From: an uncultured Mycoplasmatota bacterium
GTDB lineage: Bacteria > Bacillota_I > Bacilli_A > RF39 > UBA660
Length of the DNA stretch: 64,000 nucleotides
Direction of reading: 5' to 3'
Assembly (NCBI GenBank): GCA_900542735.1
Contig: UQOS01000002.1
Span: 7,545-71,544, forward strand
Part shown: positions 6,089-52,726 of the stretch, piece after piece
Position numbering within the stretch: the first letter of the stretch is position 1
How the letters are laid out: every line of letters begins with the position of its first letter
Notes under the pieces: generated by a model
What the model was told of the DNA's origin: nothing
The model's input: only the letters and a program-made list of their open reading frames with translations
Database searches by the model: none
Made by a program: the position numbers and the translations under genes

Positions 6089-6092
6089 CTTC

Positions 6093-15006: not shown

Positions 15007-15035
15007 GTAACTTCCTACTTTCTTATTCTTATATA

Positions 15036-15044
15036 AGTATACCA
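15036..15044 (-). promoter_or_regulatory. possible extended -10 promoter (TGgTATACT) ahead of the 2239-aa gene
   Basis: Minus strand reads TTGGTATACT about 30 nt upstream of the ATG at 15006. No clear -35 element. Confidence 0.3.
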
Positions 15045-15091
15045 ATTTTTTCGATATATTTCTACAAAAATTAATAAATGTTTTTATTTTC

Positions 15092-15162: not shown

Positions 15163-18100
15163 TTATTTATCTTCTAGTTGTTCATATAAGTCAGTATTTA
15201 AAGAAGAATTTAATCTTAAAATATAGTTTTGCATTTTTGTTACATCAGCTACTGTAACATAATTATCAACATCAATATCAGCAGCAACAAACTCAATTTT
15301 ATCTAATTTGCTTAATCTCAATATTGAATTTTCTGCTAATGTTACATCTGCTACTGTAATATAACCATCACCATCAATATCACCTTTCACTACTAAATTA
15401 AGTTGATCATAGGTAATATTATTAATTACTAGTTTTACTATATATTTAGTCTTTACATTCTCTTCATTTTCTACCACATTTGTTTCTGTACTTTCATACA
15501 CTTTCAAGTTTTCTCTTTCATTTTTTAAATTACTTAAGAAATCATCTACTATTGTATTTGGTTCCATTCCTGTTATGTAATTATTATCTTCATCATCACG
15601 ATTAATATAATAAGTATCACTTTGTATTACTGGATTAATTACATGAACGGTAACTGTTTTCGTTAATGATTTATTTCTAGTAGAAGTTATAGTAATCGTT
15701 GTATCTCCTACTGTTAATGGTGTAATTAAACCTGTATCTGATACAGTAAGAATAGATTTATTATTTACTGTATAAGTCATACCGTTATAATCAGTATTTT
15801 CAGGATTATATTTTATGTCAATTTGATAATCATTGCCAACTGGTACATTAATTTCTAAATCTGTATCAAAAGAAATAATATCTGTTTTCTTATATACTTC
15901 AATATTTACTGATTCTTGTGTAATACCATCTTCAGCAATAGAAGTAATTGTAATGATATTTTTACCAGCAAATAAAGTTGTTACACCATTACCAACTACT
16001 AATGTATCTTTTGAATTAGTAGTAACATCAAAGGAAATATTATTAACATCACCTTCTACTTCTATAGTGTAAGATTTAGTATCTGATGTAAAACTAGGAT
16101 TAAGACTACCAACACTTGGTTTAATATTAGTAATTAAAGCATCGTGACTAGCTTCTCTTACAATAGTAACTTCATAAGTATTTACTAAACCACTTTGAGA
16201 AGTAACAGTAATATATTTAGTTACTGTTCCAACGGTTAATGGATAAGTTTCTAATCCGTTAACGGTAGCATTTTCTGATACAGTTCCTGATAATGTTACA
16301 TATTTAGTACCAACTGGTACATTTAAAGTATAACTATTTACATCTTTATCAAACTTAGGAGTAATATTACCTGTACTACTTTCTAGAGTTAATAATTTAT
16401 TTTCATCACTATTTTCTCTAGTAACAACAAGTTTATATACTCTTTCTGCTTTGGAAATACTAACTACTTTAATATAAATTGTGTTCTCTCCTGGCGTTAA
16501 ATTAATAGTTGTAACTCCTGCTGTTTCTTTATAATCTGTATCTTTTTTAATATAAACGGTACTTGTTGATAACTCTGGTGTTGCTTTTAATTCAATGGAA
16601 GCTATATTATTTGCTACTGTTAAAGTATAATTTTGAATTGTTTTATCAAACTCTGGTGTAATATCATGATTCATTACAGATAAAACATTTAAATAAGTAT
16701 TACTTGCTTCTTGTCTAATAGCATCAATTGTATAAGTAGTATCTTCTCCATTATAAGATACTTTGACAGTAATGATATTATGACCAACTTCTAAGTTATC
16801 ATTTCCATAAATATCTACTACAGCATCAGGATTATGAACTTTATAAGTAACAGTAGCACTTTCATATTCATTTGGAATATTTACAATATAGTTAAGAGTA
16901 TTTGGATTAAAATCTGGTGTTAAAGCACCCTCTAATACACTTAAATCTTCTAGTAGTGTTTGTTCTAATTCATTTTCTTTTCTAGTTACTGTTATTGTAT
17001 AAGTTTTAATTGTTCCATCTTCTGCTGTTACCATAATCTGAATTTTATTTTTTCCTTCTACAAGATTATAATTACCATTTCCAGATACAGTAGCTTTATC
17101 TGATTCACTTTTACCAGTTACATTAATAGAATCAATATAATTTTCAAGTTCTACTGTATATTCTAAAGTATCTTTATCAAAGTTAGGTACTAATTCACCA
17201 TTATTAATCGTTAAACTTTCTAGATTATTATCAGATTCTTTTTTCTTAGTTACTACTACAGTATATACTTTTGTAGTTCCATCTTGGGCTACTACAGTAA
17301 GTTTTACTGTTAAATCTTCACCAGTTAACTGATAAATACCATTTCCAGTTATTTTAGCAGTAGTATCTTCTCTAATACCAATTATTTGAATAGTATTTAT
17401 ATTACTTTCTACATGATAAATATAATTATATTTTTCTTTATCAAAAGTAAAATCCTTTTCTGGGAAAGTAACGATATCACTTAAGTAAGCATTACTTGAT
17501 GCTTTTTTAGTAACAATAATAGTATATTCTAAACTTGTTTTACCATCTTGAGCAAGAGTCGTAATAGTAATGGTATTTTCACCTATTTTTAAGTTTTTAT
17601 TACCACTTATTGTATAAGTTGCTTTTTCATCCATCATAGTTACTGTTTCTGTTAACTTAGTTACAGTATTCTCAACTTCCATTGTATAAGCATTTTTATT
17701 TTTATCAAATACAGGAGCTAATGTACCATAATCAAATGATAAATTTTTAATACGAGCTTCATTTGGTCCAGCACGATAAATATCTAATTGATAGTTTCTA
17801 ACACTACCCTCATAGTTGGTAACTCTGATAACAAAAGAGTTTTTACCAGCATCTACATTTAACATAATCTTAGGATCATCTACTTTCATATCTACTTTTG
17901 TTTTCGTAGTAGAACCTAATTTATATACTTCAACAGTTGAATACATTTTTTCTTCTGCTTGTAAGTGTAGATTAACCCTTTTTGTATCTTTTAAAACTTC
18001 AGCTGTATAATTCATAATACCAATATTAAAGACTGGTTCTAATGTAGCTTCATCAATATACATATTAATTAAGCGATTACTTGCTGTAGGTTTTGGAAGT

Positions 18101-21100
18101 TTAGTAGCATGAATAATATAGGTTTTAATATCTCCATTTTCTGCTGTTACTATTACTTCAATATCTTTGGTAATACCAATTTCTAAATCTGTATTATTTC
18201 TTATTTCAACAGTTGCATCTTTAGAATTTGTTTCATAAATAACAGTAGCACTATCATATTCATATGGAATATCAACATTATATTCTAAAATATCTTTATT
18301 AAAGCTTGGATCTATTAATCCTTCTGCTACTTGCAATGATTTTAACGAATTATCACTACATTTTTTTCTATTAACATGAATTATATAATCTCTACTATTT
18401 TCACCATAACTTACAGTAATTACTATATCATTATTACCTGTATTTAATTGATATTCACCTAATCCATTAATATCATTTAATGTTTCTTTTAAAGTAGCAT
18501 CAACGATAACACTATCAATTTCATAATCAACCGAAACATTATATTCTAAAGTATCTGGATCAAATACTGGATCTAAATCATAAATAGTATCATCATGACT
18601 TACAGTTAAACTGTTTAATCCAAATTCAAATTCTCTATTTATAGTTATATTATAAGTATTTACTAATCCACTTTCACTAGTTACCGTAATTGGAATTACA
18701 TTAATTCCATAATCTAAAATATAACTACCATTTCCCACTATTGTTTGCATTTTTTGACCTTTAATAGTTTTAATGTTTATTTCACTGATATCTTTTGAAA
18801 CATTTACAGTATAATCATTTACTTCATTATTAAAGTCTGGTGTTAATGGATAAATAGTTTCTATATCATTTTTCATAGAAGAAACAGTAATACCATTTAA
18901 TAAATTATTATCACTTGCACTCCTATTAGCATGAATTTTATAAGTTTTACCACGTGTTTTATCAGCAGATAATACTACAACATTTACGATATTTTCACCA
19001 GTTACAAAGTTAGAATTACCAGTAATATATACTAATTGGTCTTCTGCTTCTTTAGTATAAATAATATCTAATTGGTTAACGGTACTATCAATATTAATGT
19101 AGTAGTCAACGGTATTTTTAACAAACTCTGGTGATAATTCATAACCTGTTACTTTCAAATTAGCTAAGTTAACATTATCACTTTGTTTTCTTATAATATT
19201 TAAAGTATATGTAGATGGATCACCTATTTCTGGTGTTACTATAATTTGGAAAGTATTTAAACCAGGTGTTAAATTAAATTCACCATTTCCAAATACTGTA
19301 GCATGAGTAGTATTAACAGCAGTACCCTCAATTTTAACGGTACTAATTTCACTATCTACTTCTAATACATAATCAAATTTATACTTATTGAAAACTTGTA
19401 AGAAATCACCGGTATCACCTGATGAAACAGTTAAACTAGCAAGTAGATTACTATATTTTTCATTACGATAAGCATGAATGATATAGTCTTTTTCGTTACA
19501 ACCATATCTAGTTTTAACAGTAGTAGAACAGCTTTCTGATTTAGTATGAACTATAATATCATTACGTCCAAAGTATAATACTTTAGCACCTTTTATTTCT
19601 ATTTGTTGATTATCATTTTTCTTTTCAACATCAAGTTCATATTTACCACTTTCTATTGCATTAAATTCTACGTTGTATTCATATAAATTTTCATCAAAAT
19701 CTGTAATCTCATATTCTGGAGTAATAAAGGAAACACCTAGAATATTAGGATCACTATTTGCTTCTCTATATACTGTTAAAGTATAATCAAAAGTTTCATT
19801 TAATGAATTTTTAACTCTTATGATAATAGTATTTTCACCAACACTTAAATTACTATTTCCAATTATTTCATAAGTTTGTAGATTGTTTTTAGGTGTTATT
19901 ACTAAATCATCTAAACTAGTAATTTCATTAGGAATATAGATTTCATAGTTAGTAGTATCTTCATTAAATACTTTATCAAAAGTACATATACCACTACAGT
20001 CATCTTCTTTTTGGAAATTAGCTTCAATATTAGCTAATTTTAACTCTCTTGTTTTACTTCTTACCAAGTTAACAGTATAAATAGCTACATCACCATTTTC
20101 AGCTGTTACCATAAATTGATACTGATTATCATAAGTTAATTTTTGAGGAAGCATTACATTGTGAACAGCATATTCATTACTTAATGTAATAGAAGTAAGA
20201 GTAGCATTTGTATCTGTATCAAAGATATCATAACTAAACTCTTTATCACTGTTTGGTTTTATCTCAACACCATCTACTACAATTTTATCAACATTATTAT
20301 TAGTAGATAACTCTGGTAATACAGAAATGTGATAATACTTCTGAACGACGCCATCACCTGCTGTTACTGTAATCGTATAGATATTACTTGTTTTATCAAA
20401 ATCAATATCTAGTTTATTATCTAAAGTAATACTAGCATTTTTATCTGCTAAACTGTAAATTATTTCATCTCTAGTTAATGTTTTTTTCGTTCTTGGAACT
20501 CTAATTGTATATTCAGTTTCTTCTGGATCATAAGTTTCTTCAAATGGGTAATTTTTTACTGATAAACTACTAAGTTGTGCATTAACTGAATCACATCTAG
20601 TAATTTCTATTGTATAAGTTTTTTCTGTCTTATCTTCAGCTCTTACTACTATTTCAATCGTATTAAGTCCATACTCTAGATTAAATGGTTTACTTAAATC
20701 TGTTACAACAGTAGCTTTTGTATCAGCTAAAACTGCCGTTATCATTACTTGATTCATAGTACCAATTACGGTTTTCTCATAACTTAATTTAGTTGATGAA
20801 AAATTAGGTAATGAAACATAGTTTACTTGTAGGTCCATTAAATCATTATTACTAGATTCACTACGAATAATACGAACAGTATAAGTATCAGTAGTATCAT
20901 CTTCAGCTGTTACTGTTAAAGAAATATCTTTATTATATTCTGTAGCTAATAGAGTATGTTTAGATGGATTAGCTGGATTAACACTAGCCATATCAGGAAG
21001 TGTTGCTTCTAAAGTAAAATCAGAAGTATTACTTGGTACTTCAATAGTACATAATTTAGAAGTTGGGTCCATATTACAACTAAATTTATTATCAGATACT

Positions 21101-24100
21101 GTTACATTAACACTAGAAATTGTTGTATCACTAGATTTTTCACGACTTACATTTAATATATAAGTTGATTTATTAGTTCCATCTTCTGATGTAGATACAA
21201 TTGTATATTTTGTTACTTTTCCTGATACTAAATCTTTGTCTTCAAAAGTTACTGTACTATCTGGATCTAGTGTTGTATAAGTAAAATTATCTTTACTTAA
21301 ATGGTTTATAAAGTTAGGTACTGTTACATTATATTCATAAGTATCAGATTGGAAAACTGGATCTAGTGTATAGGTACTAAGTTCTAAATTAGACAATCTA
21401 GATTCATTAGAAAGTGGTCTTCTTATTGTAACATTATATACTCTTTCTTCTCCACGACTTGATGTTACAGTAATAGGAATATCTAAATATTTTTCATTGG
21501 CTGGGAAGTTATAATCACCATTTCCAGTAATTGTAGCAATATCAACTTCTTTAGTAGCTAATACAGTACAAGAAGTTACATTGCTTTCTGTAAATACAGT
21601 ATAAGAAGTAGTTTCTCTATCAAAAACTGGATCTAAATTACCACAACTAACATTTAAAGTAGATAAATAATTATTAATTACTACTTCATCTGTTAAAGTT
21701 AAAGTATAAGTAGTTTCAGTATTATCTTCTGCTTTTACAGTAACCGTAATATTACTACTTGTAGTAATATCAGGTATCGTAATTACATTTTTATAAGTAT
21801 TTGAAGAAGTAGTTACTTGCTCATTATTATCTATCATAATACTTTTAATAGTAGCTGTATTCTTTAGTGTTTTTAACTCTAGGTTAGCACTTGTTAGAGT
21901 ACTAGGTATAAATACTTCATAAGTAGTTGTATCTTTATCAAACTTAGGAGTAAATCCATAATTACCAAGTTTAAATATCTCTAATCTAGAATCTGTTGAT
22001 ACTACTTTGGTAACAGTAAGTTTATAAGTATTTGTAGTTTTCTTATCCTCAGCTGTTACTTTGATTAGAACTTCTTGCGTTTGATCATTTGTAAAATTAC
22101 TATTACCTTCTACTGTATAAGTAGCATAAGAATCTGTTAAGACAATATTATCTAAATTCAAACTAGATTCATCAGTAGTAATTGTATAATTAAAGGTATT
22201 TTTATCAAATGTTTCATTAGTAATAATACCTAGTGAATCAATAGTAGCAATATTATTATCTGATCTATTTATCACTAAATTATAAGTAGATGTCGTATTA
22301 TCTTCAGCAGTAACAATAATCATATAAATATTACTTCCTGTTATTAAATTAATATCATTATCTACAATATCACCATTAATATCATAAATTTTATAACTAG
22401 CATACTCATTTCTAACAGTTGGTGTGATAGTAAGATTATGAGCTTTTGTATTTAAAGTATATTGATAACTTTCAGAATTAAATTCTTCATTTAATCCTTC
22501 ACTAGTCGTTAAGTTTGATAGTTTAGAATCACTACTCTTATTTCTATTAATAGTAATTTTATAAGTTCTAACATTACCATTTTGAGCAGTAACATTTACA
22601 AAGAAAATATTTTCTCCTAAAGTTAATTCTTGTGGGAAAGTATCTATAACGTTACCAGTTGAATCAGTGATAGAATAAGTAGCATTCTTACTTTCTATAG
22701 TAGCATTTATCGTAATACGACTATCTTCTGTTGTTTTTGTATATTCCAATAATTCTTTTGAAAATTCTTGTTCCAATCCAGTGTTGGTAGTTAAATTTGA
22801 TAAATAATTATTATCATCTAATACAAAATTGGCATTAATTTTATAGATTCTAATATCTCCCGTTTCACTGGTTACTTTAATTTCAATTTCATTTAATCCA
22901 AGATTTAGTTTTAAATTTCCAATTATTTCTACTTTAGCATATTTATTATTTGGAATTGCAGTAATTTCAATATTTACTTTATGGGTATCAAAATTATATT
23001 CTAAAGTATTTGGATCAAATGAAGGATTAAGAATAATATCTTTTACTTCTAGTGTTTTTAAAGTATTATCACTACTTAATTCTCTTGTTACAGTTAAAGT
23101 ATATACTTTTTCTACACCAGTTTCACTAGTTACGGTAATTGTGATGATATTCTCCCCTGGTACTAAATTTTTAGCATTATCACTAATTACTACTTTGGCA
23201 TATTTGTTATTTGGAACTGCCTTAATATTTAGTGAATGATCATTGGTAGTAAAACTATAATTTAAGGTATCTGAATTGAAATTAGGAATTAGAGTATTCT
23301 CTTCTACTTCTAAACTAGCTAGTGTATTATCACTGGATTTTTCCCTTGTGATTATTACAGAGTATGTTCTAGTAGTTCCATCTTCTGCAGTCACAACAAT
23401 ATTATTTTCAGAAGGATTATCTGATAATAAATTAATATTTTTTACATATACACTACTATTTCCAATTGATGCACGCTTTTTACCATTAGAAGTTGCAGTT
23501 AAGACTACATTCGTTATATCATTTGGTAAATTTAATACATATTTATCATATAATGGATCAAAATTTGGTGTTAGTATGTAATTTTCATTACCATTTGTTA
23601 CTAATAATGATTGTAAGTAATTATCATTGTAGCCAGTACGATTTACTATTAATTTATAATCACAAGTTGATTTATCTTCTGATGTTACTCTAATAGTTAT
23701 TTCATTTTTACCAGCAATTAAATTATTGTAATTACCTATTATTTGATATGTAGAAGTTCCTGCTTGAGGTGTTGCATTTATAGTTAGTTTTTCAACTTCT
23801 CCAGTTACATATAAATAATATACAAATTTTGTAGATTCAAACTTTTCTGTTAGTGGAGCTTCATCTACTGTTAAATCAGCAAGTAAAGTATTACTATTTG
23901 CTTTTCTTCTTACCACAATAGTATAAGTTAAACTGCTGCCATCTTGAGCTGTTACTACTACATTAATAGTATTTGCACCAACATTTAAGTCATATTCTTG
24001 TAAACCAGTAGAAGTTGCTAATAATTCATCTTCTAAAGTACCGGTTAAAGATATTTTTGAAACAGAGTTTTCTACTTCTAGGTCATATTTTAAATTCATT

Positions 24101-27100
24101 TTGTTGAATTCTGGACTAAGAGTTATTTTTTTAGGATTATCTTTGTTTGTAATATCTGTTACTGTTAAATCTGTTAAGAAAGCATTATTACTTTCTAGTC
24201 TAGTAACATAAATGGTATATTGTTTTTCGGTACCATTTTGAGCTGTTACTGTTATCTTAATAGTATTTTGTCCATAATCTAAGGTATCAGGTTTGGTAAT
24301 TTTTACAGTAGCATTTGGATCATCTGCTATAGCTTCTATTTCAACATTTTCTGTTTCATGAGGAACTGTTACATAATAATCCGTTATATTGTAAGAATAA
24401 TTAATATCATACTCAGGTGAAGTCATCTTTAAAGATCTTAAATCAGCATTACCTGTCATATCACGGTAAATATCATAATACCATGAAGTAGTATTATTTT
24501 TATCTTCTGATGTAACATCTATTTGGAATTTATTGCTTCCACCTGATAATTCATATAAACCATCGCCATTTACTGTTTGGAAATAATGAGCTTTATCTAC
24601 TACCATTACGATTTCACGGATAGTATATGGTACTTTTACTTGATATGAGTTAGTATTTTCATCAAATTTATAAACACAAGTACCTTCCATAGAAGAACAG
24701 TATTCTTGAAGTAAACCATTAATTAAAATATTTTTAGGAGAAGCATTAGTATCAGCTTTTCTTGTTACTACTACTTTATAAGTTTTGGTATAACCGTTTT
24801 CAGCAGTTACCACTAATGGTATTTCTGTAGTACCAGCTTCAATAATATAATCACCATTTCCAACAACACTTGCTTTACCATCTGAAGGAACTCCTTCAAC
24901 ATTAATTTCAACTTCATCACTTGCTAAGGTTAAGTAATAAGTATCGGTATTATAATCCCAGTCTGGAGTCATTACTCCTTTATTTGAAATGATACCATCA
25001 AGGTAGTTATTTTCACTTTCTTGATAAGGAATTGTGATTTTGGCATAACCATTACCGGCATGTCCTGTTTCTTTTGTTCCTGTTGGTGAGGTAAAGGAAT
25101 TAGAACCACTTAAGGTGTTGGCGTTTGTTAAATAATAATCACTGTTTAATAACCATTTACTGTCATTTTCAATTACGGATGCGTTTTCTTCGGTATAGAT
25201 GAAACCAGATCCACCACCGCCACCGTTAGACCAGCCGCTTGTAGCTCCACTTCCTCCACCGTACCAGCCGCCTCCGCCGCCACCACCGTAGTAATTTCCA
25301 CCACTAGTAGGAGCGTTAGCACCAATACCAAATTTACCTATTGTTCCAATTGCGCTACTATATTTTCCGTAAGTTCCACCTTCAGTTTGAGTACCACCAC
25401 CAGCTTGAGTTCCACATGAACCACTGGCGCTAGATCCACCACCATTAAGGCCTCCACCTACAGCACCACTAGCACAACCATCTGATCCGTGTCCGCCACC
25501 ACCACCGGCAACGATTACACGACTATATAAGGAATCTGTACCTATACGAATATCTGATGCTCCTCCACCTTTACCAACGCGAGAAGTACCACCACCATTA
25601 AATCCACCACTGGCACCACTTCCACCAGCATATACATAAAGAATAGTACCTTTGGTTAAGTAAATATTACCATAAGAGTAACCACCACGGCCACCACCAT
25701 TACCACCTTGGGCTCCCCAAACTTCTAGTAAATATTCATGGTCGTATGGAATAATTACAGTTTGAACATTACCATTATAACTTAAATCTTTTTCATAACC
25801 ACTTACAGTTACTCGTTTTACATGAAGAATATAAGTTGTTGCATCAACATGTGGCTCTGTTACATTGATCGTAATATCAAAATTGTCAGATTCAATGTAG
25901 CCATCGCCAGTTACTGTAGCTTTAGCTTCATTATCATATAAATCAACAATAGTATTTACTGCTGCTATATGGCTTTCAAATTCAATATCAAATTCCGTTT
26001 GATCATTAGGAATTGGTATTTCTATTACTGAACCACCACTACTGTTAAAGGTTAGTTTTTTAATTTTACTTGAGTGAGGTAAAGTAATGTTTAAAGTATA
26101 AGTTTTCGTACTTGTACCAGTTTCATTAGTTACTGAAATTGGTATTTTATAAGTATTATTTTTATTAGAAATATGACCGATATTAGTAATAATTTGGTCG
26201 GCTGAACCTTTATCAACTGTTAAATCATACTCATCCATATAATAAGGTAAGGTTACATTATAAGTTAAAGTATCTTTATCAAAAGTTTTATCAGAAAATT
26301 CAGAGATAGAATATTCATCAAAATAGATATTATTTAAATAATCAATATCATTTGCTTCACGGTGAATGTGATATGTAAATACTTCTACAGCGCCATTAAT
26401 ATAAGTAATGGTTATATTATAAGTATTATCACCAACATGAATTTCTTGTTTACCATCACCATCTACTTTTAAGATAGAATCACTATCAGTTACTGTGAAG
26501 GTTACTAAAGAAGAATCATTACTAGATAAAGTTCCAGTATATTCTTTTGTATCATAATCAAATTCTTTATCTAAAGTAACATTATCACTAACGATAATAT
26601 CATAATCATATGATAATGAGAAAGATATTTTAACGAATCCATTACCAGTATGACCTGTTTCATTGCCACCTTTTGGTGCTGGGAAGCTAGTGTTTCCGGC
26701 TTTAGTAGATGCTTCAGATAGATATTGACTAGATGATAATAAGTATTCATCAGGTACGATAGACGCGTTTGATTCGGTCCAAACAAAACCAGAACCTCCA
26801 CCGCCTCCACGGTCATCGTCTCTAGAACCGTCAACGCCAGCTCCGCCACCGCCGTACCAGCCGCCGCCACCGCCTCCGCCGTAGCCACCATTAGCAGCAA
26901 TTCCGGATCCTCCTTTTCCAAAGGTTCCGATATTGGCACCGCCTGAAGTTTGACTAGCACCTTGAGCACCATCACCGTAATCACCTGCACCGTTGCCACC
27001 GGAAGTTCCGCCACCAACTCCGCCGGTATTACCACTAGCGCCAACGGAACCACCTCCGCCAGCAACTATTAAACGATTATATAATGATTGGCCACCTAAG

Positions 27101-29592
27101 CGAATATCTGATGCACCACCACCATAGATAGTGCCATAGCCTGCTTTTCCACCACCGTTCCAGCCACCATTATTACCGTTACTTCCAACATATACATATA
27201 AAATTTGCCCTTTATTTAAGAAAATTTGTCCAGTTGAATAGCCACCTTTTCCACCATTATTACTTCCACGATGTCCACCTTGGGCACCCCATGCTTCAAG
27301 AGTATAAATTCCAGCTGCAGGGGCAATAAATTTTTGTGGTAAACCATTATATTCATACCCATAAGCTCCTGTTGAACCACTCATTAAGTAATCACTTTGC
27401 TTATGGAAAGTAATTTTATAATTAACTGTTAAACCAGTAATATCATTTTTTACATCAACACTATATACATATTGTTTACTGTTTGTGATATCATAGCTAC
27501 CGGTATGACTTTCAACCATAGAATAGCCATCATTTAGTTGAAGGTTAACATTAATACTATTTACACTATCAAGTACTGAAATATTGTATTCATAAATTGT
27601 GTAATCAAAGTCAATAGGAACTGTACCATCATTAATCGTAATATCAGCAACACCATTGATTAATTTAGGACTAATTCTGACATAACCATTACCCGCATGT
27701 CCTGTTTCGTTAGAACCAGTTGGTGATAAAAATGAAGCATTACCATTTATTAAAGAAGCATTTGTCAAATAATTTTTATCAGTAACTAAGTAACCTTCTG
27801 GTACATATTTACTATTTTCACTAGTAAAGGCAAAGTTAGATCCTCCTCCTCCACCTTTATCGTCATCTCTACTGCCATCTGGATTAGCACCACCACCGCC
27901 GTACCAGCCACCACCACCGGCGCCAGCATAGCCACCTGATCCAAATGTTCCATCTCCACCATAACCGAATCCTGCGCGATAGCTTCCAGCAGCATTAATA
28001 GAAGCAGCTGTTCCACCAGATCCGCAACCAGATGATGCACTAACGCCACCTGCTCCACCGCCATTACCACTAGCTCCAACGGAACCACCACCACCAGCAA
28101 CTAGGACTCTATTATATAAAGTATTACCACCATAGCGAATATCAGTAGCTCCACCACCATAGGTATTAGTAGTTTCATGCCAAACACCACCAGTTGTATA
28201 ATAACCAACGGTATGGCCACCACCATTATATCCTTTTTTTAAACCATCTTTTGTGGTAGTAGAACCAGACCCACCAACATAAATATATAGTACTTCTCCT
28301 TTAACTAAATACATGTCAGCTTTAGAGTAAGCTCCTTTTCCACCATTATTACTTCCACGATGACCACCTTGAGCTCCCCAAGTTTCAAGAGTATAAATAC
28401 CTGTTGCTGGTACATAGAATTTTTCATAATCACCAGCATATGAGTAACCATATGATACACTGCTACGATTTTCTAAGTAAGCATTTTGTTTTTTTACTGT
28501 TACTGTATAAATCTGCACAACACCTGTTTCGTTATCTGTTAAAGTAATAGTATTCGTAACAGATAATTTATCAGTCATATCGGTACTACGATTTGATTGA
28601 GTTAAATTGTAACCTTCCTCAGTAGTTATATTAAAACGAATATTTTCAATGTCATTATCTACAGTTAAATCATAATTATAGATATTATATTTATAATCTA
28701 TTGGAACATTTCCACGATTGATTTCAAAATTAGTAATTCCATCTAATTTTACAGCAGTTATTTTAGCATAACCATCACCAGCTCTATTTCCATCAGTATA
28801 GTTAACACTTGTCATAAAATAATCTTCGCTGACTGAGTAACCAGTTGGTACATATTGTTTTGTTTGAGAGTTCCAAGTAAAACTTGAACCTCCTCCACCA
28901 CCGCGATCATCATCTCTACTGCTGTCCGGATTAGCTCCGCCACCACCGTACCAGCCGCCACCACCGGCACCAGCATAGCCGCCTGCACCTGATGTTCCAT
29001 CTCCACCATAACCGAATCCTGCACGAAGACTACCGGCTGTAGATAATGAAGCACCTATTCCACCAAAACCACAACCGCTTGTAGAGCCACCAGTGACACC
29101 TCCTGCTCCACCAGTATTACTATTAGAACCAACGGAACCTCCACCGCCACCAACAATTAATCTTGATTTAAGGCTTGTTTCATTATTCCATTCACCAGAT
29201 ACAAAACGAATATCAGTAGCACCGCCACCATATATTTTTAACTGTGGTTGAAATCCTCCACCATTGTATCCTGTATGAGTTTGACCACTACCACCAACAT
29301 AAATATATAGAGTATCTCCTCTTTTTAGATATACTTCTCCTGTTGCATAGCCACCTTTTCCACCGTTATTAGACCCGCGGTGTCCACCTTGAGCTCCCCA
29401 AGTTTCAAGTTTATAAATACCACTTCTTGGAACAACAAAAGTTTGATAATCACCTGTGTAATTAAATTCATATATATTACTATTAGTTCCTGCATTTACT
29501 ATTGGCAATCCTAAAAATCCTGTTAATAAAGTTACTAGCAAGATACTAAATACCCTTTTACTTCGTTTTAATTTATTAAATACTCTATTCAT
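15163..29592 (-). CDS. giant secreted protein (4809 aa): four glycine-rich modules, about 38 cadherin-like modules, a Big_2-like module and a C-terminal dockerin
   Basis: Single uninterrupted 14.4-kb ORF. Signal peptide MNRVFNKLKRSKRVFSILLVTLLTGFLGLPIVNA. Repeated LS.L.V..G.L.P.F......Y...V......V.V.A...A.V....L..G.N...I.VTAEDG...Y.I.V.R modules (counted by eye). Confidence 0.92.
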   Translation of the reverse strand: MNRVFNKLKRSKRVFSILLVTLLTGFLGLPIVNAGTNSNIYEFNYTGDYQTFVVPRSGIYKLETWGAQGGHRGSNNGGKGGYATGEVYLKRGDTLYIYVGGSGQTHTGYNGGGFQPQLKIYGGGATDIRFVSGEWNNETSLKSRLIVGGGGGSVGSNSNTGGAGGVTGGSTSGCGFGGIGASLSTAGSLRAGFGYGGDGTSGAGGYAGAGGGGWYGGGGANPDSSRDDDRGGGGGSSFTWNSQTKQYVPTGYSVSEDYFMTSVNYTDGNRAGDGYAKITAVKLDGITNFEINRGNVPIDYKYNIYNYDLTVDNDIENIRFNITTEEGYNLTQSNRSTDMTDKLSVTNTITLTDNETGVVQIYTVTVKKQNAYLENRSSVSYGYSYAGDYEKFYVPATGIYTLETWGAQGGHRGSNNGGKGAYSKADMYLVKGEVLYIYVGGSGSTTTKDGLKKGYNGGGHTVGYYTTGGVWHETTNTYGGGATDIRYGGNTLYNRVLVAGGGGSVGASGNGGGAGGVSASSGCGSGGTAASINAAGSYRAGFGYGGDGTFGSGGYAGAGGGGWYGGGGANPDGSRDDDKGGGGGSNFAFTSENSKYVPEGYLVTDKNYLTNASLINGNASFLSPTGSNETGHAGNGYVRISPKLINGVADITINDGTVPIDFDYTIYEYNISVLDSVNSINVNLQLNDGYSMVESHTGSYDITNSKQYVYSVDVKNDITGLTVNYKITFHKQSDYLMSGSTGAYGYEYNGLPQKFIAPAAGIYTLEAWGAQGGHRGSNNGGKGGYSTGQIFLNKGQILYVYVGSNGNNGGWNGGGKAGYGTIYGGGASDIRLGGQSLYNRLIVAGGGGSVGASGNTGGVGGGTSGGNGAGDYGDGAQGASQTSGGANIGTFGKGGSGIAANGGYGGGGGGGWYGGGGAGVDGSRDDDRGGGGGSGFVWTESNASIVPDEYLLSSSQYLSEASTKAGNTSFPAPKGGNETGHTGNGFVKISFSLSYDYDIIVSDNVTLDKEFDYDTKEYTGTLSSNDSSLVTFTVTDSDSILKVDGDGKQEIHVGDNTYNITITYINGAVEVFTYHIHREANDIDYLNNIYFDEYSISEFSDKTFDKDTLTYNVTLPYYMDEYDLTVDKGSADQIITNIGHISNKNNTYKIPISVTNETGTSTKTYTLNITLPHSSKIKKLTFNSSGGSVIEIPIPNDQTEFDIEFESHIAAVNTIVDLYDNEAKATVTGDGYIESDNFDITINVTEPHVDATTYILHVKRVTVSGYEKDLSYNGNVQTVIIPYDHEYLLEVWGAQGGNGGGRGGYSYGNIYLTKGTILYVYAGGSGASGGFNGGGTSRVGKGGGASDIRIGTDSLYSRVIVAGGGGGHGSDGCASGAVGGGLNGGGSSASGSCGTQAGGGTQTEGGTYGKYSSAIGTIGKFGIGANAPTSGGNYYGGGGGGGWYGGGSGATSGWSNGGGGGSGFIYTEENASVIENDSKWLLNSDYYLTNANTLSGSNSFTSPTGTKETGHAGNGYAKITIPYQESENNYLDGIISNKGVMTPDWDYNTDTYYLTLASDEVEINVEGVPSDGKASVVGNGDYIIEAGTTEIPLVVTAENGYTKTYKVVVTRKADTNASPKNILINGLLQEYCSSMEGTCVYKFDENTNSYQVKVPYTIREIVMVVDKAHYFQTVNGDGLYELSGGSNKFQIDVTSEDKNNTTSWYYDIYRDMTGNADLRSLKMTSPEYDINYSYNITDYYVTVPHETENVEIEAIADDPNATVKITKPDTLDYGQNTIKITVTAQNGTEKQYTIYVTRLESNNAFLTDLTVTDITNKDNPKKITLSPEFNKMNLKYDLEVENSVSKISLTGTLEDELLATSTGLQEYDLNVGANTINVVVTAQDGSSLTYTIVVRRKANSNTLLADLTVDEAPLTEKFESTKFVYYLYVTGEVEKLTINATPQAGTSTYQIIGNYNNLIAGKNEITIRVTSEDKSTCDYKLIVNRTGYNDNYLQSLLVTNGNENYILTPNFDPLYDKYVLNLPNDITNVVLTATSNGKKRASIGNSSVYVKNINLLSDNPSENNIVVTAEDGTTRTYSVIITREKSSDNTLASLEVEENTLIPNFNSDTLNYSFTTNDHSLNIKAVPNNKYAKVVISDNAKNLVPGENIITITVTSETGVEKVYTLTVTRELSSDNTLKTLEVKDIILNPSFDPNTLEYNFDTHKVNIEITAIPNNKYAKVEIIGNLKLNLGLNEIEIKVTSETGDIRIYKINANFVLDDNNYLSNLTTNTGLEQEFSKELLEYTKTTEDSRITINATIESKNATYSITDSTGNVIDTFPQELTLGENIFFVNVTAQNGNVRTYKITINRNKSSDSKLSNLTTSEGLNEEFNSESYQYTLNTKAHNLTITPTVRNEYASYKIYDINGDIVDNDINLITGSNIYMIIVTAEDNTTSTYNLVINRSDNNIATIDSLGIITNETFDKNTFNYTITTDESSLNLDNIVLTDSYATYTVEGNSNFTNDQTQEVLIKVTAEDKKTTNTYKLTVTKVVSTDSRLEIFKLGNYGFTPKFDKDTTTYEVFIPSTLTSANLELKTLKNTATIKSIMIDNNEQVTTSSNTYKNVITIPDITTSSNITVTVKAEDNTETTYTLTLTDEVVINNYLSTLNVSCGNLDPVFDRETTSYTVFTESNVTSCTVLATKEVDIATITGNGDYNFPANEKYLDIPITVTSSRGEERVYNVTIRRPLSNESRLSNLELSTYTLDPVFQSDTYEYNVTVPNFINHLSKDNFTYTTLDPDSTVTFEDKDLVSGKVTKYTIVSTSEDGTNKSTYILNVSREKSSDTTISSVNVTVSDNKFSCNMDPTSKLCTIEVPSNTSDFTLEATLPDMASVNPANPSKHTLLATEYNKDISLTVTAEDDTTDTYTVRIIRSESSNNDLMDLQVNYVSLPNFSSTKLSYEKTVIGTMNQVMITAVLADTKATVVTDLSKPFNLEYGLNTIEIVVRAEDKTEKTYTIEITRCDSVNAQLSSLSVKNYPFEETYDPEETEYTIRVPRTKKTLTRDEIIYSLADKNASITLDNKLDIDFDKTSNIYTITVTAGDGVVQKYYHISVLPELSTNNNVDKIVVDGVEIKPNSDKEFSYDIFDTDTNATLTSITLSNEYAVHNVMLPQKLTYDNQYQFMVTAENGDVAIYTVNLVRSKTRELKLANIEANFQKEDDCSGICTFDKVFNEDTTNYEIYIPNEITSLDDLVITPKNNLQTYEIIGNSNLSVGENTIIIRVKNSLNETFDYTLTVYREANSDPNILGVSFITPEYEITDFDENLYEYNVEFNAIESGKYELDVEKKNDNQQIEIKGAKVLYFGRNDIIVHTKSESCSTTVKTRYGCNEKDYIIHAYRNEKYSNLLASLTVSSGDTGDFLQVFNKYKFDYVLEVDSEISTVKIEGTAVNTTHATVFGNGEFNLTPGLNTFQIIVTPEIGDPSTYTLNIIRKQSDNVNLANLKVTGYELSPEFVKNTVDYYINIDSTVNQLDIIYTKEAEDQLVYITGNSNFVTGENIVNVVVLSADKTRGKTYKIHANRSASDNNLLNGITVSSMKNDIETIYPLTPDFNNEVNDYTVNVSKDISEINIKTIKGQKMQTIVGNGSYILDYGINVIPITVTSESGLVNTYNITINREFEFGLNSLTVSHDDTIYDLDPVFDPDTLEYNVSVDYEIDSVIVDATLKETLNDINGLGEYQLNTGNNDIVITVSYGENSRDYIIHVNRKKCSDNSLKSLQVAEGLIDPSFNKDILEYNVDIPYEYDSATVIYETNSKDATVEIRNNTDLEIGITKDIEVIVTAENGDIKTYIIHATKLPKPTASNRLINMYIDEATLEPVFNIGIMNYTAEVLKDTKRVNLHLQAEEKMYSTVEVYKLGSTTKTKVDMKVDDPKIMLNVDAGKNSFVIRVTNYEGSVRNYQLDIYRAGPNEARIKNLSFDYGTLAPVFDKNKNAYTMEVENTVTKLTETVTMMDEKATYTISGNKNLKIGENTITITTLAQDGKTSLEYTIIVTKKASSNAYLSDIVTFPEKDFTFDKEKYNYIYHVESNINTIQIIGIREDTTAKITGNGIYQLTGEDLTVKLTVVAQDGTTKVYTVVVTKKKESDNNLESLTINNGELVPNFDKDTLEYTVELENYIDSINVTGKSESDKATVSGNGNYNLVEGKNKIQIMVTAEDGTIKTYTITVTRKENELEQTLLEDLSVLEGALTPDFNPNTLNYIVNIPNEYESATVTYKVHNPDAVVDIYGNDNLEVGHNIITVKVSYNGEDTTYTIDAIRQEASNTYLNVLSVMNHDITPEFDKTIQNYTLTVANNIASIELKATPELSTSTVYIKKDTDYKETAGVTTINLTPGENTIYIKVVSISKAERVYKLVVTRENSDENKLLTLESSTGNITPKFDKDVNSYTLNVPVGTKYVTLSGTVSENATVNGLETYPLTVGTVTKYITVTSQSGLVNTYEVTIVREASHDALITNIKPSVGSLNPSFTSDTKSYTIEVEGDVNNISFDVTTNSKDTLVVGNGVTTLFAGKNIITITSIAEDGITQESVNIEVYKKTDIISFDTDLEINVPVGNDYQIDIKYNPENTDYNGMTYTVNNKSILTVSDTGLITPLTVGDTTITITSTRNKSLTKTVTVHVINPVIQSDTYYINRDDEDNNYITGMEPNTIVDDFLSNLKNERENLKVYESTETNVVENEENVKTKYIVKLVINNITYDQLNLVVKGDIDGDGYITVADVTLAENSILRLSKLDKIEFVAADIDVDNYVTVADVTKMQNYILRLNSSLNTDLYEQLEDK
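15205..15390 (-). other. dockerin (two F-hand segments) of the 4809-aa protein
   Basis: GDIDGDGYITVADVTLAENSIL ... ADIDVDNYVTVADVTKMQNYIL. Both segments show the D.D.D.....D calcium-loop spacing followed by a helix. Confidence 0.7.
15628..15876 (-). other. bacterial Ig-like group 2 (Big_2)-like module
   Basis: ISFDTDLEINVPVGNDYQIDIKYNPENTDYNGMTYTVNNKSILTVSDTGLITPLTVGDTTITITSTRNKSLTKTVTVHV matches the usual Big_2 pattern (..Y.S....ATV...G.VTA...G.A.ITA). Confidence 0.55.
25030..29475 (-). repeat. four diverged glycine-rich modules (about 240-260 aa each; ALK/LTK-type Gly_rich, PF12810-like)
   Basis: Modules at about 28750-29475, 27670-28455, 26620-27363 and 25030-25785. Each has Y.Y.G..Q.F..P..GIY.LE.WGAQGG..G..GGKGGY..G...L.KG..LY.YVGG.G, GGGA.DIR, R..VAGGGG, GWYGGGG and ETGH.GNGY.KI. 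Dense GGN codons make them GC-rich islands in AT-rich DNA. Confidence 0.7.
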
Positions 29593-29716: not shown

Positions 29717-30172
29717 TTATTTTGTTTCTTCTACTTCAAATCCACACACTAGATTTGTATCAATACGGTAATCCTTTTTACCATAAGGCTCTTTAGGATA
29801 AATAATAACCATCGAATTTGTTTTATCACATTCTTGATTTGTTTTACTATTTACAAATTTCTTGATAATTTCTTCTGACTCATCTTTTTTATAACGAGCT
29901 AAATTATCTAAACTTACTTTAATACCAATATCAGTATATTTTTCTAAGAATGTTTTCTTTTCTTCATCAGTTTTCCCTATTTGATTATAGTAAAAATCTT
30001 CATAAAATGATATCCCTAGTTCTTTTAATTCTTTTGTTAGTTTTTGAGACTCATTTTTTGAGTGATTATTAAATATCAGAAATAAACTGATAATTACTAT
30101 TAATAGTAATATAATACCTCCTATTATATAATAATGTTTTTTATTTAGTTTTTTTAAATTTATTTTTTTCAT
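29717..30172 (-). CDS. small N-terminally anchored hypothetical protein
   Basis: 151 aa. TM helix YYIIGGIILLLIVIISLFLIF, then a soluble domain with two Cys (QECDK...LVCGF). Lies between the small cohesin gene and the giant gene. Confidence 0.75.
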   Translation of the reverse strand: MKKINLKKLNKKHYYIIGGIILLLIVIISLFLIFNNHSKNESQKLTKELKELGISFYEDFYYNQIGKTDEEKKTFLEKYTDIGIKVSLDNLARYKKDESEEIIKKFVNSKTNQECDKTNSMVIIYPKEPYGKKDYRIDTNLVCGFEVEETK

Positions 30173-30312: not shown

Positions 30313-31065
30313 TTATTTAAATAAATTTAAAATTTGTTGAAAGAAGTTGGTTACACTTTTCGTTATTTTTTGTATTAGGCTTTTTTCTTTTTGAGTAGTA
30401 ACTTGGTGTGAAACTATTGTATTCTTTTCCTTTTTTTTACTTTCTACTTCTTCTTGTTTTACGATTTCATTATTTTCTTTTTCAGCATTTAAATTTATTT
30501 CATTTTCTGGTTCTACCTTGATTTCTTTTTCATTCTTTATAGATTCAGTGTTTATAACTGGTATTTCTATATTTTTTAGTTCTTCATTTTTATTTTTTTG
30601 AATAATATCAATTTCTTTAGTTACCACATTATTAGCAATATAATCTTTACTATCTGTTAGTTTTGTGTTTGTTAGAGTAATTGTAGTAGTACCTTCTTGT
30701 AAAGCTTTGAATGTAAATTCATATACAGTTAAATTATCTTTAATACCGTTCTCTAGAGTAAAGTCAAGTCCAGCTATTTTATAGTTATAATCCTCATTAA
30801 TTTGAAATTGGTATGGTGTATCTATTCCTTTTGAAGAAATATATTCAATTTTTGTGTTATCAAATGATAAATTACCACCCATACTAACAACACCATCGTA
30901 AGTATCTTTAATATCTTCAACATTCATTTTTACTGTAAAAGTATCTCCAACTGTAACTGTATCATCACTATTAAATGATACTGTAGCATTTCCCATAGCA
31001 TAAACAGAAGTAGTAGAGCTTAATAAACAAATTGTCATTAATCCTACAAGTATTTTATTTTTCAT
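30313..31065 (-). CDS. small secreted cohesin-domain protein (250 aa) with no TM anchor or dockerin
   Basis: Signal peptide MKNKILVGLMTICLLSSTTSVYA, a cohesin-like module, then a Glu/Lys-rich tail ending in an amphipathic LIQKITKSVTNFFQQILNLFK. RBS AAAGGGGGA. Confidence 0.85.
   Translation of the reverse strand: MKNKILVGLMTICLLSSTTSVYAMGNATVSFNSDDTVTVGDTFTVKMNVEDIKDTYDGVVSMGGNLSFDNTKIEYISSKGIDTPYQFQINEDYNYKIAGLDFTLENGIKDNLTVYEFTFKALQEGTTTITLTNTKLTDSKDYIANNVVTKEIDIIQKNKNEELKNIEIPVINTESIKNEKEIKVEPENEINLNAEKENNEIVKQEEVESKKKEKNTIVSHQVTTQKEKSLIQKITKSVTNFFQQILNLFK
30601..30993 (-). other. cohesin-like module of the 250-aa protein
   Basis: GNATVSFNSDDTVTVGDTFTVKMNVED..GGNLSFDNTKIEYISSKG..PYQFQIN..NYKIAGLD..YEFTFKALQEGTTTITLTNTKL. 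Motif-by-motif parallel to 7800-8192. Confidence 0.6.
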
Positions 31066-31241: not shown

Positions 31242-31315
31242 GGGTCTATAGCCAAGTGGTAAGGCGTGGGACTGCAACTCCCTGATCGTTGGTTCAAATC
31301 CGACTAGGCCCTCCA
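31242..31315 (+). tRNA. tRNA-Cys (GCA)
   Basis: Acceptor GGGTCTA/TAGGCCC, D-loop with GG, anticodon loop CTGCAAC, T-arm GTTGG-TTCAAAT-CCGAC, encoded CCA. Confidence 0.85.
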
Positions 31316-31322
31316 CTTTTAT

Positions 31323-31396
31323 GCGGACATAGTTTAATGGTAGAATACAACCTTGCCAAGGTTGCTGTGGGGGTCCGATTCCCCTTGTCCGCTCCA
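31323..31396 (+). tRNA. tRNA-Gly (GCC) with a non-canonical T-loop (TCCGATT)
   Basis: Acceptor GCGGACA/TGTCCGC, anticodon arm CAACC-TTGCCAA-GGTTG, T-arm GGGGG-TCCGATT-CCCCT, encoded CCA. Confidence 0.8.
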
Positions 31397-33688: not shown

Positions 33689-34688
33689 ATGAATCATAAA
33701 GATAAGATAAACGAAATTATAGAAGTAAGTAAAAAGCGTTTGGAACTTAAAAAAATTGGTTTACTTCCTTATGCAATTTGGCCAACTGGTCCTACTGGGC
33801 CTAGTGGTAGAGGGTTAGAAATTATAGGTAGTTATGCTAGTTTAGAAGAATTAAAAAAAGATCACCCTACTGGTAAAGATGGCGATAGTTATATTTATCA
33901 ATGGTGAATTATATATTTGGGATTCTACTATTCATAACTGGACTGATATTGGTAATATTAAGGAGCCTAAAGGAGATACTGGAGATACTGAGACTTTTAT
34001 TATTCAAAAAACTACTACAGGAGAAGCTGGTACAAAAGCACAGGTAATTGACAATAAAACTGGATTAGAACATCACTTAAATTTTATAATTCCTAAGGGT
34101 GATAAAGGTGAGACTGGTAACGAAGGTAAAATGGGGCCTACTGGTCCTAAAGGAAAAAAAGGAGAAATAGGTCCTAAAGGTGAAACTGGTCTTCAAGGAG
34201 AAATAGGCCCTATAGGAATTCAAGGGCCAACTGGGCCAACTGGACCAACGGGACCACGAGGAACTGCTAGTCCAACTGATTATAATACTATTGGCTTTGC
34301 TAGTATTATAAATACCAAAAAAGCTGGAACTACTCAAATTTGTAACACAAGAGTAATCCCTGGCGTTAGTGATTATATAGTGATTAACGGTAATAGTATC
34401 ACGATTAAAAAAACTAGTGTGTTTGAAATTGTACTTTGTGGTAGAATTTCTGGAGTTACTCAAAATACAGGAGCATCTTTTTCATTATTTAATACAGAAA
34501 CAAATGCTGTAGTTAGTGACTTATTATTTGTATTAGAAGCAGGAAATACGCCTGATATGAATTTTTCTGAAATGACTGTAACGGATATTATAGGTCCTAC
34601 TACTTTAGAAGTTAGAACGACTATTAATGGTAATGATGAAATTAGTTTTTCAGAAATGAATGTATTACTTAAAAGCTATAATATTTAG
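33689..34688 (+). CDS. collagen-like triple-helix repeat protein (BclA-like) with the reading frame broken by a 1-nt shift near 33893-33899 (possible pseudogene)
   Basis: GGAGG RBS before the ATG at 33689. ORF1 (33689-33907) and ORF2 (33879-34688) overlap in frames offset by +1. Skipping one T of ATTT gives ...KDGDSYIINGELYIWDSTIHNWTDIG. G-X-Y runs are present (GPTGPTGPSG; GDKGETGNEGKMGPTGPKGKKGEIGPKGETGLQGEIGPIGIQGPTGPTGPTGPRG), followed by a C-terminal globular domain. Confidence 0.7.
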
Positions 34689-51926: not shown

Positions 51927-52003
51927 TGGTCGGGAAGACAGGATTTGAACCTGCAACCCCTTGGTCCCAAACCAAGTGCTCTACCAAGTTGAGCCACTTC
52001 CCG
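51927..52003 (-). tRNA. tRNA-Pro (TGG)
   Basis: Acceptor CGGGAAG/CTTCCCG, anticodon arm CTTGG-TTTGGGA-CCAAG, T-loop TTCAAAT, encoded CCA. Confidence 0.9.
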
Positions 52004-52006
52004 ATA

Positions 52007-52083
52007 TGGTGCGCTCGAAGGGATTCGAACCCCTGACCTTTTGGTTCGTAGCCAAACACTCTATCCAGCTGAGCTACGAGCGC
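52007..52083 (-). tRNA. tRNA-Arg (ACG)
   Basis: Acceptor GCGCTCG/CGAGCGC, anticodon arm TTTGG-CTACGAA-CCAAA, encoded CCA. Confidence 0.9.
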
Positions 52084-52115
52084 ATGACCCATTTAACCGG
52101 TCAAATATTAAAAAT

Positions 52116-52191
<76 letters not shown>

Positions 52192-52196
52192 AAATA

Positions 52197-52273
52197 TGGC
52201 GGTCTCAACGGGACTCGGACCCGCGATCTTCTGCGTGACAGGCAGACGTGTTAACCAGCTGCACCATGAGACC
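52197..52273 (-). tRNA. tRNA-Asp (GTC) with a non-canonical T-loop (TCCGAGT)
   Basis: Acceptor GGTCTCA/TGAGACC, anticodon arm TCTGC-CTGTCAC-GCAGA, T-arm GCGGG-TCCGAGT-CCCGT, encoded CCA. Confidence 0.85.
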
Positions 52274-52277
52274 AATA

Positions 52278-52354
<77 letters not shown>

Positions 52355-52360
52355 ATATTG

Positions 52361-52453
52361 TGGCGGAGGAAAAGGGATTCGAACCCCTGCGCCGCTTGCA
52401 CGACCTCCCGGTTTTCAAGACCGGTCCCTTCAACCAGACTTGGGTATTCCTCC
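52361..52453 (-). tRNA. tRNA-Ser (TGA)
   Basis: Anticodon arm CCGGT-CTTGAAA-ACCGG, long variable arm, 93 nt, encoded CCA. Confidence 0.9.
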
Positions 52454-52455
52454 GT

Positions 52456-52544
52456 TGGTGCCTAAGGTCGGACTTGAACCGACACGAGTGTTGAAGCTCG
52501 CAGGATTTTAAGTCCTGTGCGTCTACCTATTCCGCCACTCAGGC
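52456..52544 (-). tRNA. tRNA-Leu (TAA)
   Basis: Anticodon arm CAGGA-CTTAAAA-TCCTG, long variable arm, 89 nt, encoded CCA. Confidence 0.9.
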
Positions 52545-52550
52545 ACATAA

Positions 52551-52626: not shown

Positions 52627-52645
52627 AAATAATAACTAATATAAA

Positions 52646-52720: not shown

Positions 52721-52726
52721 ATTTAG

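Follow-up and report, generated by a model that had tools for sequence, protein, structure and literature searches.

What is a domain usually treated as a metazoan oddity doing, four times over, at one end of a giant bacterial protein? The glycine-rich domain (GRD) of the ALK/LTK receptors had its structure solved only in 2021, and four copies of it are encoded in a 64,000-nucleotide (nt) stretch of DNA, hereafter the window, from an uncultured Mycoplasmatota bacterium (positions 7,545 to 71,544 of contig UQOS01000002.1, assembly GCA_900542735.1). They belong to a protein of 4809 amino acids (aa), the length given in the first-pass annotation of the window, which is a single open reading frame (ORF) in the ORF list (15163-29592, minus strand). 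We estimate a probability of roughly 60% that this protein is a secreted surface fibre, anchored through a dockerin-cohesin interaction, in which the GRDs serve as multivalent ligand-binding heads for a surface polymer. Taken on its own, the result is that a domain was called correctly within an architecture that recurs; it is not a new kind of system.

Identity and fold of the glycine-rich modules

Each module was scored alone against the Pfam profile PF12810 (ALK_LTK_GRD, formerly called Gly_rich), whose length is 243 positions and whose gathering threshold is 24.5 bits. Modules 1 (aa 37-284, 28741-29484), 2 (aa 377-646, 27655-28464), 3 (aa 740-995, 26608-27375) and 4 (aa 1264-1525, 25018-25803), all on the minus strand, scored 119.8, 122.0, 130.1 and 132.6 bits, respectively, and the whole protein totalled 453.7 bits. 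The single-module E-values, from 2.5e-34 for module 1 to 3.1e-38, exclude a chance match. Because the alignments spanned nearly the full profile (positions 7-242, 7-241, 7-242 and 9-242), the match takes in the non-glycine strands as well. When 62 homologues were aligned, 30 columns were invariant and ~60 nearly so, many of them non-glycine.

AlphaFold2 modelled both modules that we submitted with confidence. Module 3, folded from the 62-sequence alignment, had a mean predicted local distance difference test score (pLDDT) of 92.2 and a predicted template modelling score (pTM) of 0.92; module 4 reached 89.0 and 0.90, and neither model contained any segment with pLDDT below 50. In both, strands were confined to the first ~105 and last ~40 residues, and the central ~115 residues were confidently placed without regular helix or sheet, holding isolated DSSP bridges only. 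As modelled, this layout is the one known from the “TG” domain of ALK, in which a glycine-rich subdomain is inserted into a TNF-like sandwich. The confident but irregular central region would fit polyglycine-II helices packed in a hydrogen-bonded lattice.

We compared the two models with 350,542 PDB chains in Foldseek, taking E ≤ 0.001 as the match threshold. Each model matched 21 ALK/LTK chains from human and C. elegans (E 1.7e-8 to 1.2e-4, probability 1.00). These were the top 21 fold matches for module 3 and all 21 of the matches within the threshold for module 4. Apart from them and one phage protein, no PDB match fell below E 0.7. The phage protein, from the tail tip of mycobacteriophage Bxb1 (9d93_Qa), matched module 3 at E 9e-4 with a template modelling score (TM-score) of 0.30; we treated it as weak, its E-value for module 4 being 1.9. 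Searches of PDB sequences were nearly blind, as phmmer reached ALK only at E 0.18 and over the first strands only, and the 62-sequence profile found no ALK match, so the link to solved structures rests on the fold comparison. The results bear out the ALK/LTK kinship that the first-pass annotation had proposed and contradict the contrary possibilities of no PF12810 match, an unrelated fold or disordered linkers.

The modules and the metazoan TG domain (PDB 7LRZ, 7N00, 7NX1 and 7LIR) share the order of their elements, namely N-terminal strands, presumed glycine lattice, acidic loop and closing strands, but are just ~20% identical. The context also differs, as the bacterial protein carries the domain four times in alternation with cadherin-like domains. 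Neither an EGF-like domain nor a tyrosine kinase appeared in the Pfam scan of the 4809-aa protein, and it has no transmembrane helix, its sole hydrophobic segment being the signal peptide. To our knowledge, the ALKAL cytokine ligands have no bacterial counterpart.

Pfam divided the whole protein into 28 Cadherin-like stretches, four ALK_LTK_GRD domains, one Big_2 and one Dockerin_1. We refined module and spacer boundaries with hidden Markov models (HMMs) built in-house from homologues, for the GRDs, and from the protein's own repeats, for the cadherin-like domains. Reading from the N-terminus, a signal peptide (aa 1-35, 29488-29592, MNRVFNKLKRSKRVFSILLVTLLTGFLGLPIVNAG), recognised by inspection from its basic N-terminus, hydrophobic aa 13-35 and VNA-G site, is followed directly by module 1. 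One cadherin-like spacer (aa 290-368, 28489-28725; a PF12733 family match) separates modules 1 and 2, one (aa 652-731, 27400-27639) separates modules 2 and 3, and three (aa 1001-1260, 25813-26592) precede module 4, so that all four GRDs fall within the first 1525 residues. Beyond them lies a stalk of 33 more cadherin-like domains (aa 1536-4653, 15634-24987), the last of which is Big_2 in Pfam. This brings the beta-sandwich domains of this kind to 38 in total. A linker then leads to a type I dockerin (aa 4736-4792, 15217-15387) with two calcium-loop repeats, DIDGDGYITVAD and DIDVDNYVTVAD. Scanned alone, the C-terminus scored 30.3 bits against PF00404 (Dockerin_1; cut-off 22.9), and in NCBIfam it matched the dockerin end of CelK. 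The HMM boundaries agreed to within 10-20 nt with the module positions first annotated, and the spacing by one to three cadherin-like modules was likewise recovered, as 1, 1 and 3. The module length given as 240-260 aa was only roughly right, the measured range being 248-270 aa. Since the dockerin is real and stands at the opposite end, the heads do lie at the end farthest from it.

A probably anchored fibre and its neighbours

The giant gene belongs to a cluster (4346-31065) that encodes two dockerin-bearing fibres, the second with a dockerin-like end, and two membrane-anchored carriers of the cohesin type. Directly downstream, and like all genes of the cluster described here on the minus strand, are genes for proteins of 2252, 727 and 589 aa; upstream are genes for proteins of 151 and 250 aa. 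The 727-aa protein (6093-8276) carries a signal peptide, a cohesin (PF00963), a Pro/Thr linker, four cadherin-like domains, a transmembrane helix (aa 562-592) and a charged tail. The 589-aa protein (4346-6115; BLASTP to the 727-aa protein, E 8e-47) is built similarly, with a signal peptide, a cohesin-like domain, three cadherin-like domains, a transmembrane helix (aa 523-554) and a Lys-rich tail. The secreted 250-aa protein (30313-31065) had no Pfam match of its own above threshold, but its cohesin-like N-terminal domain shared 44% identity with the 727-aa protein's cohesin region (BLASTP, E 7e-28). The N-terminal cohesin-type domains of all three are thus related to each other.

From their domain content, the 727- and 589-aa proteins look like membrane anchors for both dockerin-bearing fibres, and these cohesin-type carriers are candidate partners of the giant fibre's dockerin. 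With two such membrane-anchored proteins encoded next door, the fibre would be anchored and the GRDs would occupy its distal end. The arrangement recalls the scaffoldins and anchoring proteins of known cohesin-dockerin assemblies: the displayed protein bears a type I dockerin, and membrane carriers from the same cluster bear cohesin-type domains. It differs from a cellulosome in that a fibre takes the place of a hydrolase as cargo, and in that anchoring would be by a C-terminal transmembrane helix; Pfam detected neither an S-layer homology (SLH) domain nor a sortase motif in the 727- and 589-aa carriers. The second fibre (2252 aa, 8287-15045) consists of a ~250-aa head, 20 cadherin-like domains and a C-terminus whose Dockerin_1 score of 19.5 bits is below the cut-off. 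Its head matched nothing in Pfam or NCBIfam and may be a different kind of binding tip.

The gene directly upstream of the giant gene encodes a 151-aa membrane protein (29717-30172; transmembrane helix at aa 12-39) without a Pfam or PHROG match. With tblastn, copies 46-62% identical were found directly upstream of the giant gene at four other loci (L086, L087, L088 and L139), and a further copy lies upstream, though not reported as adjacent, in L118 (Clostridium sp. CAG:433), making five genomes in all, with direct adjacency in four. On this evidence of position, the 151-aa protein is a probable conserved partner of the giant gene. Between the two genes we noted a terminator-like hairpin (29707-29686) after the 151-aa gene and a promoter-like site (29647-29619, minus strand) before the giant gene, both consensus matches only; their placement suggests that the giant gene may have its own transcription start.

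Phage relatives and the role of the heads

The closest relatives of a single module were proteins of 300-400 aa, ~55% identical over 96% of its length, and several of them carry the name “MAG TPA: Glycine rich protein [Caudoviricetes sp.]” (e.g., DAI97545.1). The gene for this last protein lies, in three phage contigs, three genes past the tape-measure gene and ahead of the holin and endolysin genes. In siphophages of Gram-positive hosts, the region between the tape-measure and lysis genes holds the baseplate and receptor-binding genes. An 879-aa relative with three back-to-back GRDs is encoded among the tail genes of a prophage, with a GH25/CHAP endolysin gene six genes further on, and among the phage-type proteins some carry three or four GRDs in direct tandem. 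Structural comparison with BFVD gave 93 viral matches at E ≤ 0.001, among them cyanophage, Caulobacter phage and giant-virus proteins, the best being a Siphoviridae protein with a TM-score of 0.96. By sequence and by predicted structure, phage GRD proteins are therefore the closest to our modules, although at 300-1200 aa they have neither the frame of signal peptide, stalk and dockerin nor the cadherin-like spacers. In a crude neighbour-joining tree, phage GRDs interleaved with the four modules of the window, with module 4 nearest the phage clade, and the distance from module to module was about equal to that from module to phage. A tblastn search of 50,697 GenBank phage records with module 3 returned nothing, probably because of the low-complexity filter; such phages are also mainly metagenomic. 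As the other searches show phage relatives, we did not read this result as absence. The 400-aa GRD gene shared without change by three phage contigs stands, together with the genes downstream of it, behind differing head and packaging genes (L001 compared with L002 and L003, 10001-11203), which is mosaic exchange of a tail-tip cassette.

A structural precedent comes from the tail fibre protein gp24 of the myocyanophage Pam3. Cryo-electron microscopy placed a TNF-like and glycine-rich pair at the distal end of that fibre, where it resembles C. elegans ALK (7LIR) and is proposed by the authors to recognise the host receptor (PMC9608196). The protein is a chaperone-assisted 3:3 trimer held by an N-terminal helical bundle (PMC9608196). 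Our fibre shares with gp24 a TNF-like domain paired with a glycine-rich one, by way of homology to phage GRD proteins. It does not share the N-terminal trimerising shaft or the location in a tail module, its first GRD following directly on the signal peptide. The gp38 adhesin of phage S16 (PDB 6F45) offers a more distant comparison, and neither gp24 nor gp38 was among the top 50 Foldseek matches listed for modules 3 and 4. The first-pass annotation had stated that bacterial members of the family have no known function, which agrees with the “unknown function” label in PHROGs and with the lack of a model in NCBIfam, as well as with a literature search whose sole paper citing PF12810 was unrelated, but overlooks the phage precedent of gp24.

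Because the ALK domain binds ligand, the phage relatives lie in receptor blocks and the Pam3 pair sits at a fibre tip, we infer a binding role for the GRDs; the phage kinship supports that role without proving it. The heads would be the functional tip of the fibre, as was first suggested. The fibre would be exported and its dockerin would dock to a membrane-anchored cohesin, as the gene content predicts. At ~4 nm per domain, a figure usual for Ig-like domains, a stalk counted at 38 domains would keep the heads roughly 150-200 nm off the cell. Four GRDs per chain acting as ligand-binding heads would then give multivalent attachment. As a target, a surface polymer would be likeliest, whether a glycopolymer of bacterial cell walls or a glycan from host or diet, because siphophages encode the nearest kin of the heads within their receptor-recognition block and the metazoan homologue binds a ligand.

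Several observations weigh against this reading. No GRD from a prokaryote or gut phage is known to have a measured ligand, and PHROGs lists the relevant families (phrog_1589, 5811, 7388 and 18810) as “unknown function.” The phage GRD is N-terminal and is followed by another domain, so it need not contact the receptor. TM-scores to ALK were modest (0.37-0.49). On the anchoring side, the cohesin of the 727-aa protein is the sole one to pass its threshold and does so narrowly, at 25.1 bits against a cut-off of 24.1. Finally, among seven orthologues of the fibre, non-glycine head positions were conserved at 0.64-0.67, compared with 0.58-0.76 in the adjacent cadherin-like domains, and the heads bore no clear signature of a conserved site or of diversifying loops. 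As head substitutions were spread out and non-glycine identity resembled that of the cadherin-like neighbours, we propose no binding site.

In a different role, the GRDs would be modules of self-association or assembly, the flat glycine lattices or TNF-like sandwiches of adjacent fibres packing together so as to bundle the fibres into a coat or aggregate cells of the same species. The TNF-like domain oligomerises in TNF and is trimeric in Pam3 gp24 (PMC9608196). Four heads per chain, and three to nine in relatives, would suit avidity, and the heads have evolved at about the same rate as the stalk. We regard this explanation as unlikely, although it deserves to be kept in view. Alternatively, the fibre could be the substrate-targeting arm of a cellulosome-like system, its GRDs acting like carbohydrate-binding modules (CBMs) on plant or dietary fibre. 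Firmicutes that degrade fibre typically have both cohesin-dockerin pairs and cadherin-like domains, and the organism dwells in guts, among them those of Hadza people and rabbits. However, we found no glycoside hydrolase, CBM, other carbohydrate-active domain or CBM-bearing scaffoldin in the cluster or the flanking genes scanned, and the nearest kin of the GRDs belong to phage tails, which target cell surfaces. We hold this to be a distinctly improbable account.

The strong similarity to phage tail-region proteins also raises the idea that the modules are a remnant or part of a prophage or phage-tail-like particle and not of a cellular adhesin, and a collagen-like ORF 4 kb away does match tail-fibre PHROGs. 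We nevertheless rejected a prophage context. The collagen matches come from repeats only, and capsid, portal, terminase, tape-measure, holin, lysis and integrase genes were all absent near the fibre cluster. The surroundings are chromosomal, with tRNAs, FtsW and GltX, and the protein bears a signal peptide as well as a dockerin with candidate cohesin partners, the same order recurring in orthologues from other metagenome-assembled genomes (MAGs). It is still harder to credit that the glycine-rich stretches are flexible low-complexity linkers whose Pfam matches reflect composition. Their glycine content and the poor showing of ALK in PDB sequence searches would fit such linkers, but the profile is covered in its entirety, non-glycine beta-strands included, the many conserved columns are often non-glycine, and the AlphaFold2 models, with no segment below pLDDT 50, match ALK/LTK structures specifically. 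Both of these explanations, the phage remnant, which we consider very remote, and the linkers, are contradicted by the data.

A bolder version of the surface-polymer reading is that gut Bacilli with reduced genomes took over the domain with which siphophage tails recognise receptors, placed multiple copies at the end of a 150-200-nm fibre anchored by cohesin and dockerin, and hold on with them to cell-wall polymers of other bacteria, with the corollary that the prokaryotic and viral pool of ~13,750 cluster representatives described below is the evolutionary source of the metazoan ALK/LTK ligand-binding domain. We consider this speculative and doubtful. If true, it would mean that phage-style host recognition had been repurposed for attachment of bacterium to bacterium. 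For the question of what prokaryotic GRDs bind, the locus makes a clean test case, as four diverged heads sit on one chain with an anchor system in the cluster and close relatives in phages, whose host range lends itself to comparison. Once a ligand was identified, thousands of “glycine-rich proteins” from gut metagenomes could be annotated, along with phage tail proteins filed as unknown, and the ligand would also bear on the origin of the ALK ligand-binding domain.

Recurrence, module history and chromosomal setting

This architecture is not singular and recurs widely. An exhaustive profile search of 1.84 billion cluster representatives recovered 13,753 proteins within E ≤ 0.001, of which 7,578 passed the stricter limit of E ≤ 1e-10. 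Among the best 150 of the 13,753, to which our architecture counts refer, 51 exceeded 3000 aa, 28 paired GRDs with cadherin-like domains and at least 20 ended in a dockerin; heads, cadherin-like stalk and C-terminal dockerin occurred together in at least 20. With G for a GRD and c for a cadherin-like domain, most of the 28 followed patterns such as GcGcGcccGc34 or GccGccGcc...Gc34, with up to nine heads. The giants of Erysipelotrichales and other uncultured Bacilli (e.g., MEG0726442.1 and MEG0415802.1; P0241-P0252 and P0266 in our set) alternate 3-9 GRDs with 1-4 cadherin-like domains, then continue with 17-34 more cadherin-like domains and a C-terminal dockerin, so that head number and stalk length vary on one plan. 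NCBI names those in Erysipelothrix MAGs “glycine-rich protein” or “cadherin-like beta sandwich domain-containing protein,” and our literature search found no experimental study of giant GRD-cadherin-dockerin proteins. What was already known is thus the curated domain family, the recurrent giant plan in public data and the automatic “glycine-rich” naming; what is added here is the setting for anchoring by cohesin and dockerin, the 151-aa protein as a conserved partner, the close tie to gut-phage tail tips and the size of the family. An ALK/LTK-type domain emerges as a stock building block of gut bacteria and phages, sited where binding domains usually sit.

The closest view of how the plan is maintained came from an orthologue in MAG UMGS872 (locus L087), which aligns position for position with the fibre. 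Its GRDs were 80-89% identical to ours and its stalk 65-81%. As this 81-83% identical orthologue keeps the order G-c-G-c-G-ccc-G without gaps in any head domain, selection on head order seems likely. A mouse-gut Bacilli MAG (MGBC164908, 1-20319 of its locus) has three consecutive giant genes, each starting with a GRD/cadherin-like head array, and a dockerin-like segment closes both of the complete giants (~2400 and 3017 aa). Among species-representative genomes, Bacteroidales giants bear 5-8 GRDs without cadherin-like domains, and the GRD also occurs in Nomurabacteria, Flavobacteriales and Myxococcota. Six Segatella/Prevotella loci hold tandem arrays of 4-8 adjacent genes encoding 210-620 aa, each with one GRD (occasionally two); such single-GRD arrays, a markedly different route to multiple copies of the domain, occur in the cultured S. 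albensis DSM 11370 and S. paludivivens DSM 17968. Erysipelothrix aquatica VA92-K48 and Peribacillus glennii V44-8 are further cultivable carriers.

Within the window, the four modules are 52-59% identical pairwise as protein and 62-87% identical as DNA over stretches of 30-270 nt, and modules 1-3 start 1020-1089 nt apart. Together these values suggest that a unit of GRD plus spacer was duplicated in tandem long ago, and the low DNA identity led us to reject recent duplication or gene conversion among the modules. The copies have since diverged in detail. Module 1 is without the segment preceding the last strand that ends in ETGH, module 2 has a 17-aa insertion after YVGGSG, and module 4 is without HRGS and without the DDD loop. 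The motif strings first reported as common to all copies hold as a consensus but not as exact strings in each, as seen in YVGSNG in module 3, RLIVGGGGG in module 1, HEYLLE (for GIY.LE) and GWYGGGS in module 4, and closing strands that read GNGYVRI, GNGFVKI or GNGYAKI. Of the two motifs assigned to modules 1-3 only, SRDDD.GGGGGS was indeed present in those three and missing from module 4, but GGKGGY reads GGKGAY in module 2.

The modules also stand out by base composition, as had been noticed. Their GC content was 0.42-0.47, compared with 0.27 for the rest of the gene and 0.28 for the window, and glycine made up 27-31% of their residues compared with 4% elsewhere in the protein. The rise sits in codon positions 1 and 2, and GC at third positions (GC3) was low in both parts, at 0.18 in the modules and 0.09 in the rest of the gene. 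The GC islands are therefore mostly glycine codons. A foreign origin of the DNA is needless, and we rejected horizontal transfer as their main cause. The earlier attribution to dense GGN codons stands in the main but does not cover GC3, which roughly doubles from the remainder of the gene to the modules, also at non-glycine codons (0.10 versus 0.18); this small excess (25018-29484) is left unaccounted for by glycine content. A 164-aa ORF in another frame (26571-27065, minus strand) lies wholly within module 3. We rejected it as a gene, as its product is Val/Leu/Ala-rich nonsense and an artefact of a stop-poor run of glycine codons.

The window as a whole is chromosomal, with 19 tRNA genes and genes for FtsW/RodA, GltX and a DinG-type helicase. 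Its GltX shared 93% identity with the GltX of an uncultured Bacilli MAG recovered from Hadza gut samples. Identity was 80-89% to further MAGs labelled “Bacilli” or “Tenericutes” from the guts of rabbits, humans and chickens, Candidatus Scybalousia among them. A defence-system reading was set aside, as PADLOC gave no match for the heads or the upstream genes. The collagen-repeat protein mentioned above (269 aa, 33879-34688, plus strand) matches many tail-fibre PHROGs via its Gly-X-Y repeats and has no other phage genes near it. Among the tRNA genes, 13 form a dense array within ~1 kb (51927-52977, minus strand), and a tRNA-Cys/tRNA-Gly pair (31242-31396, plus strand) lies 0.2 kb upstream of the fibre cluster.

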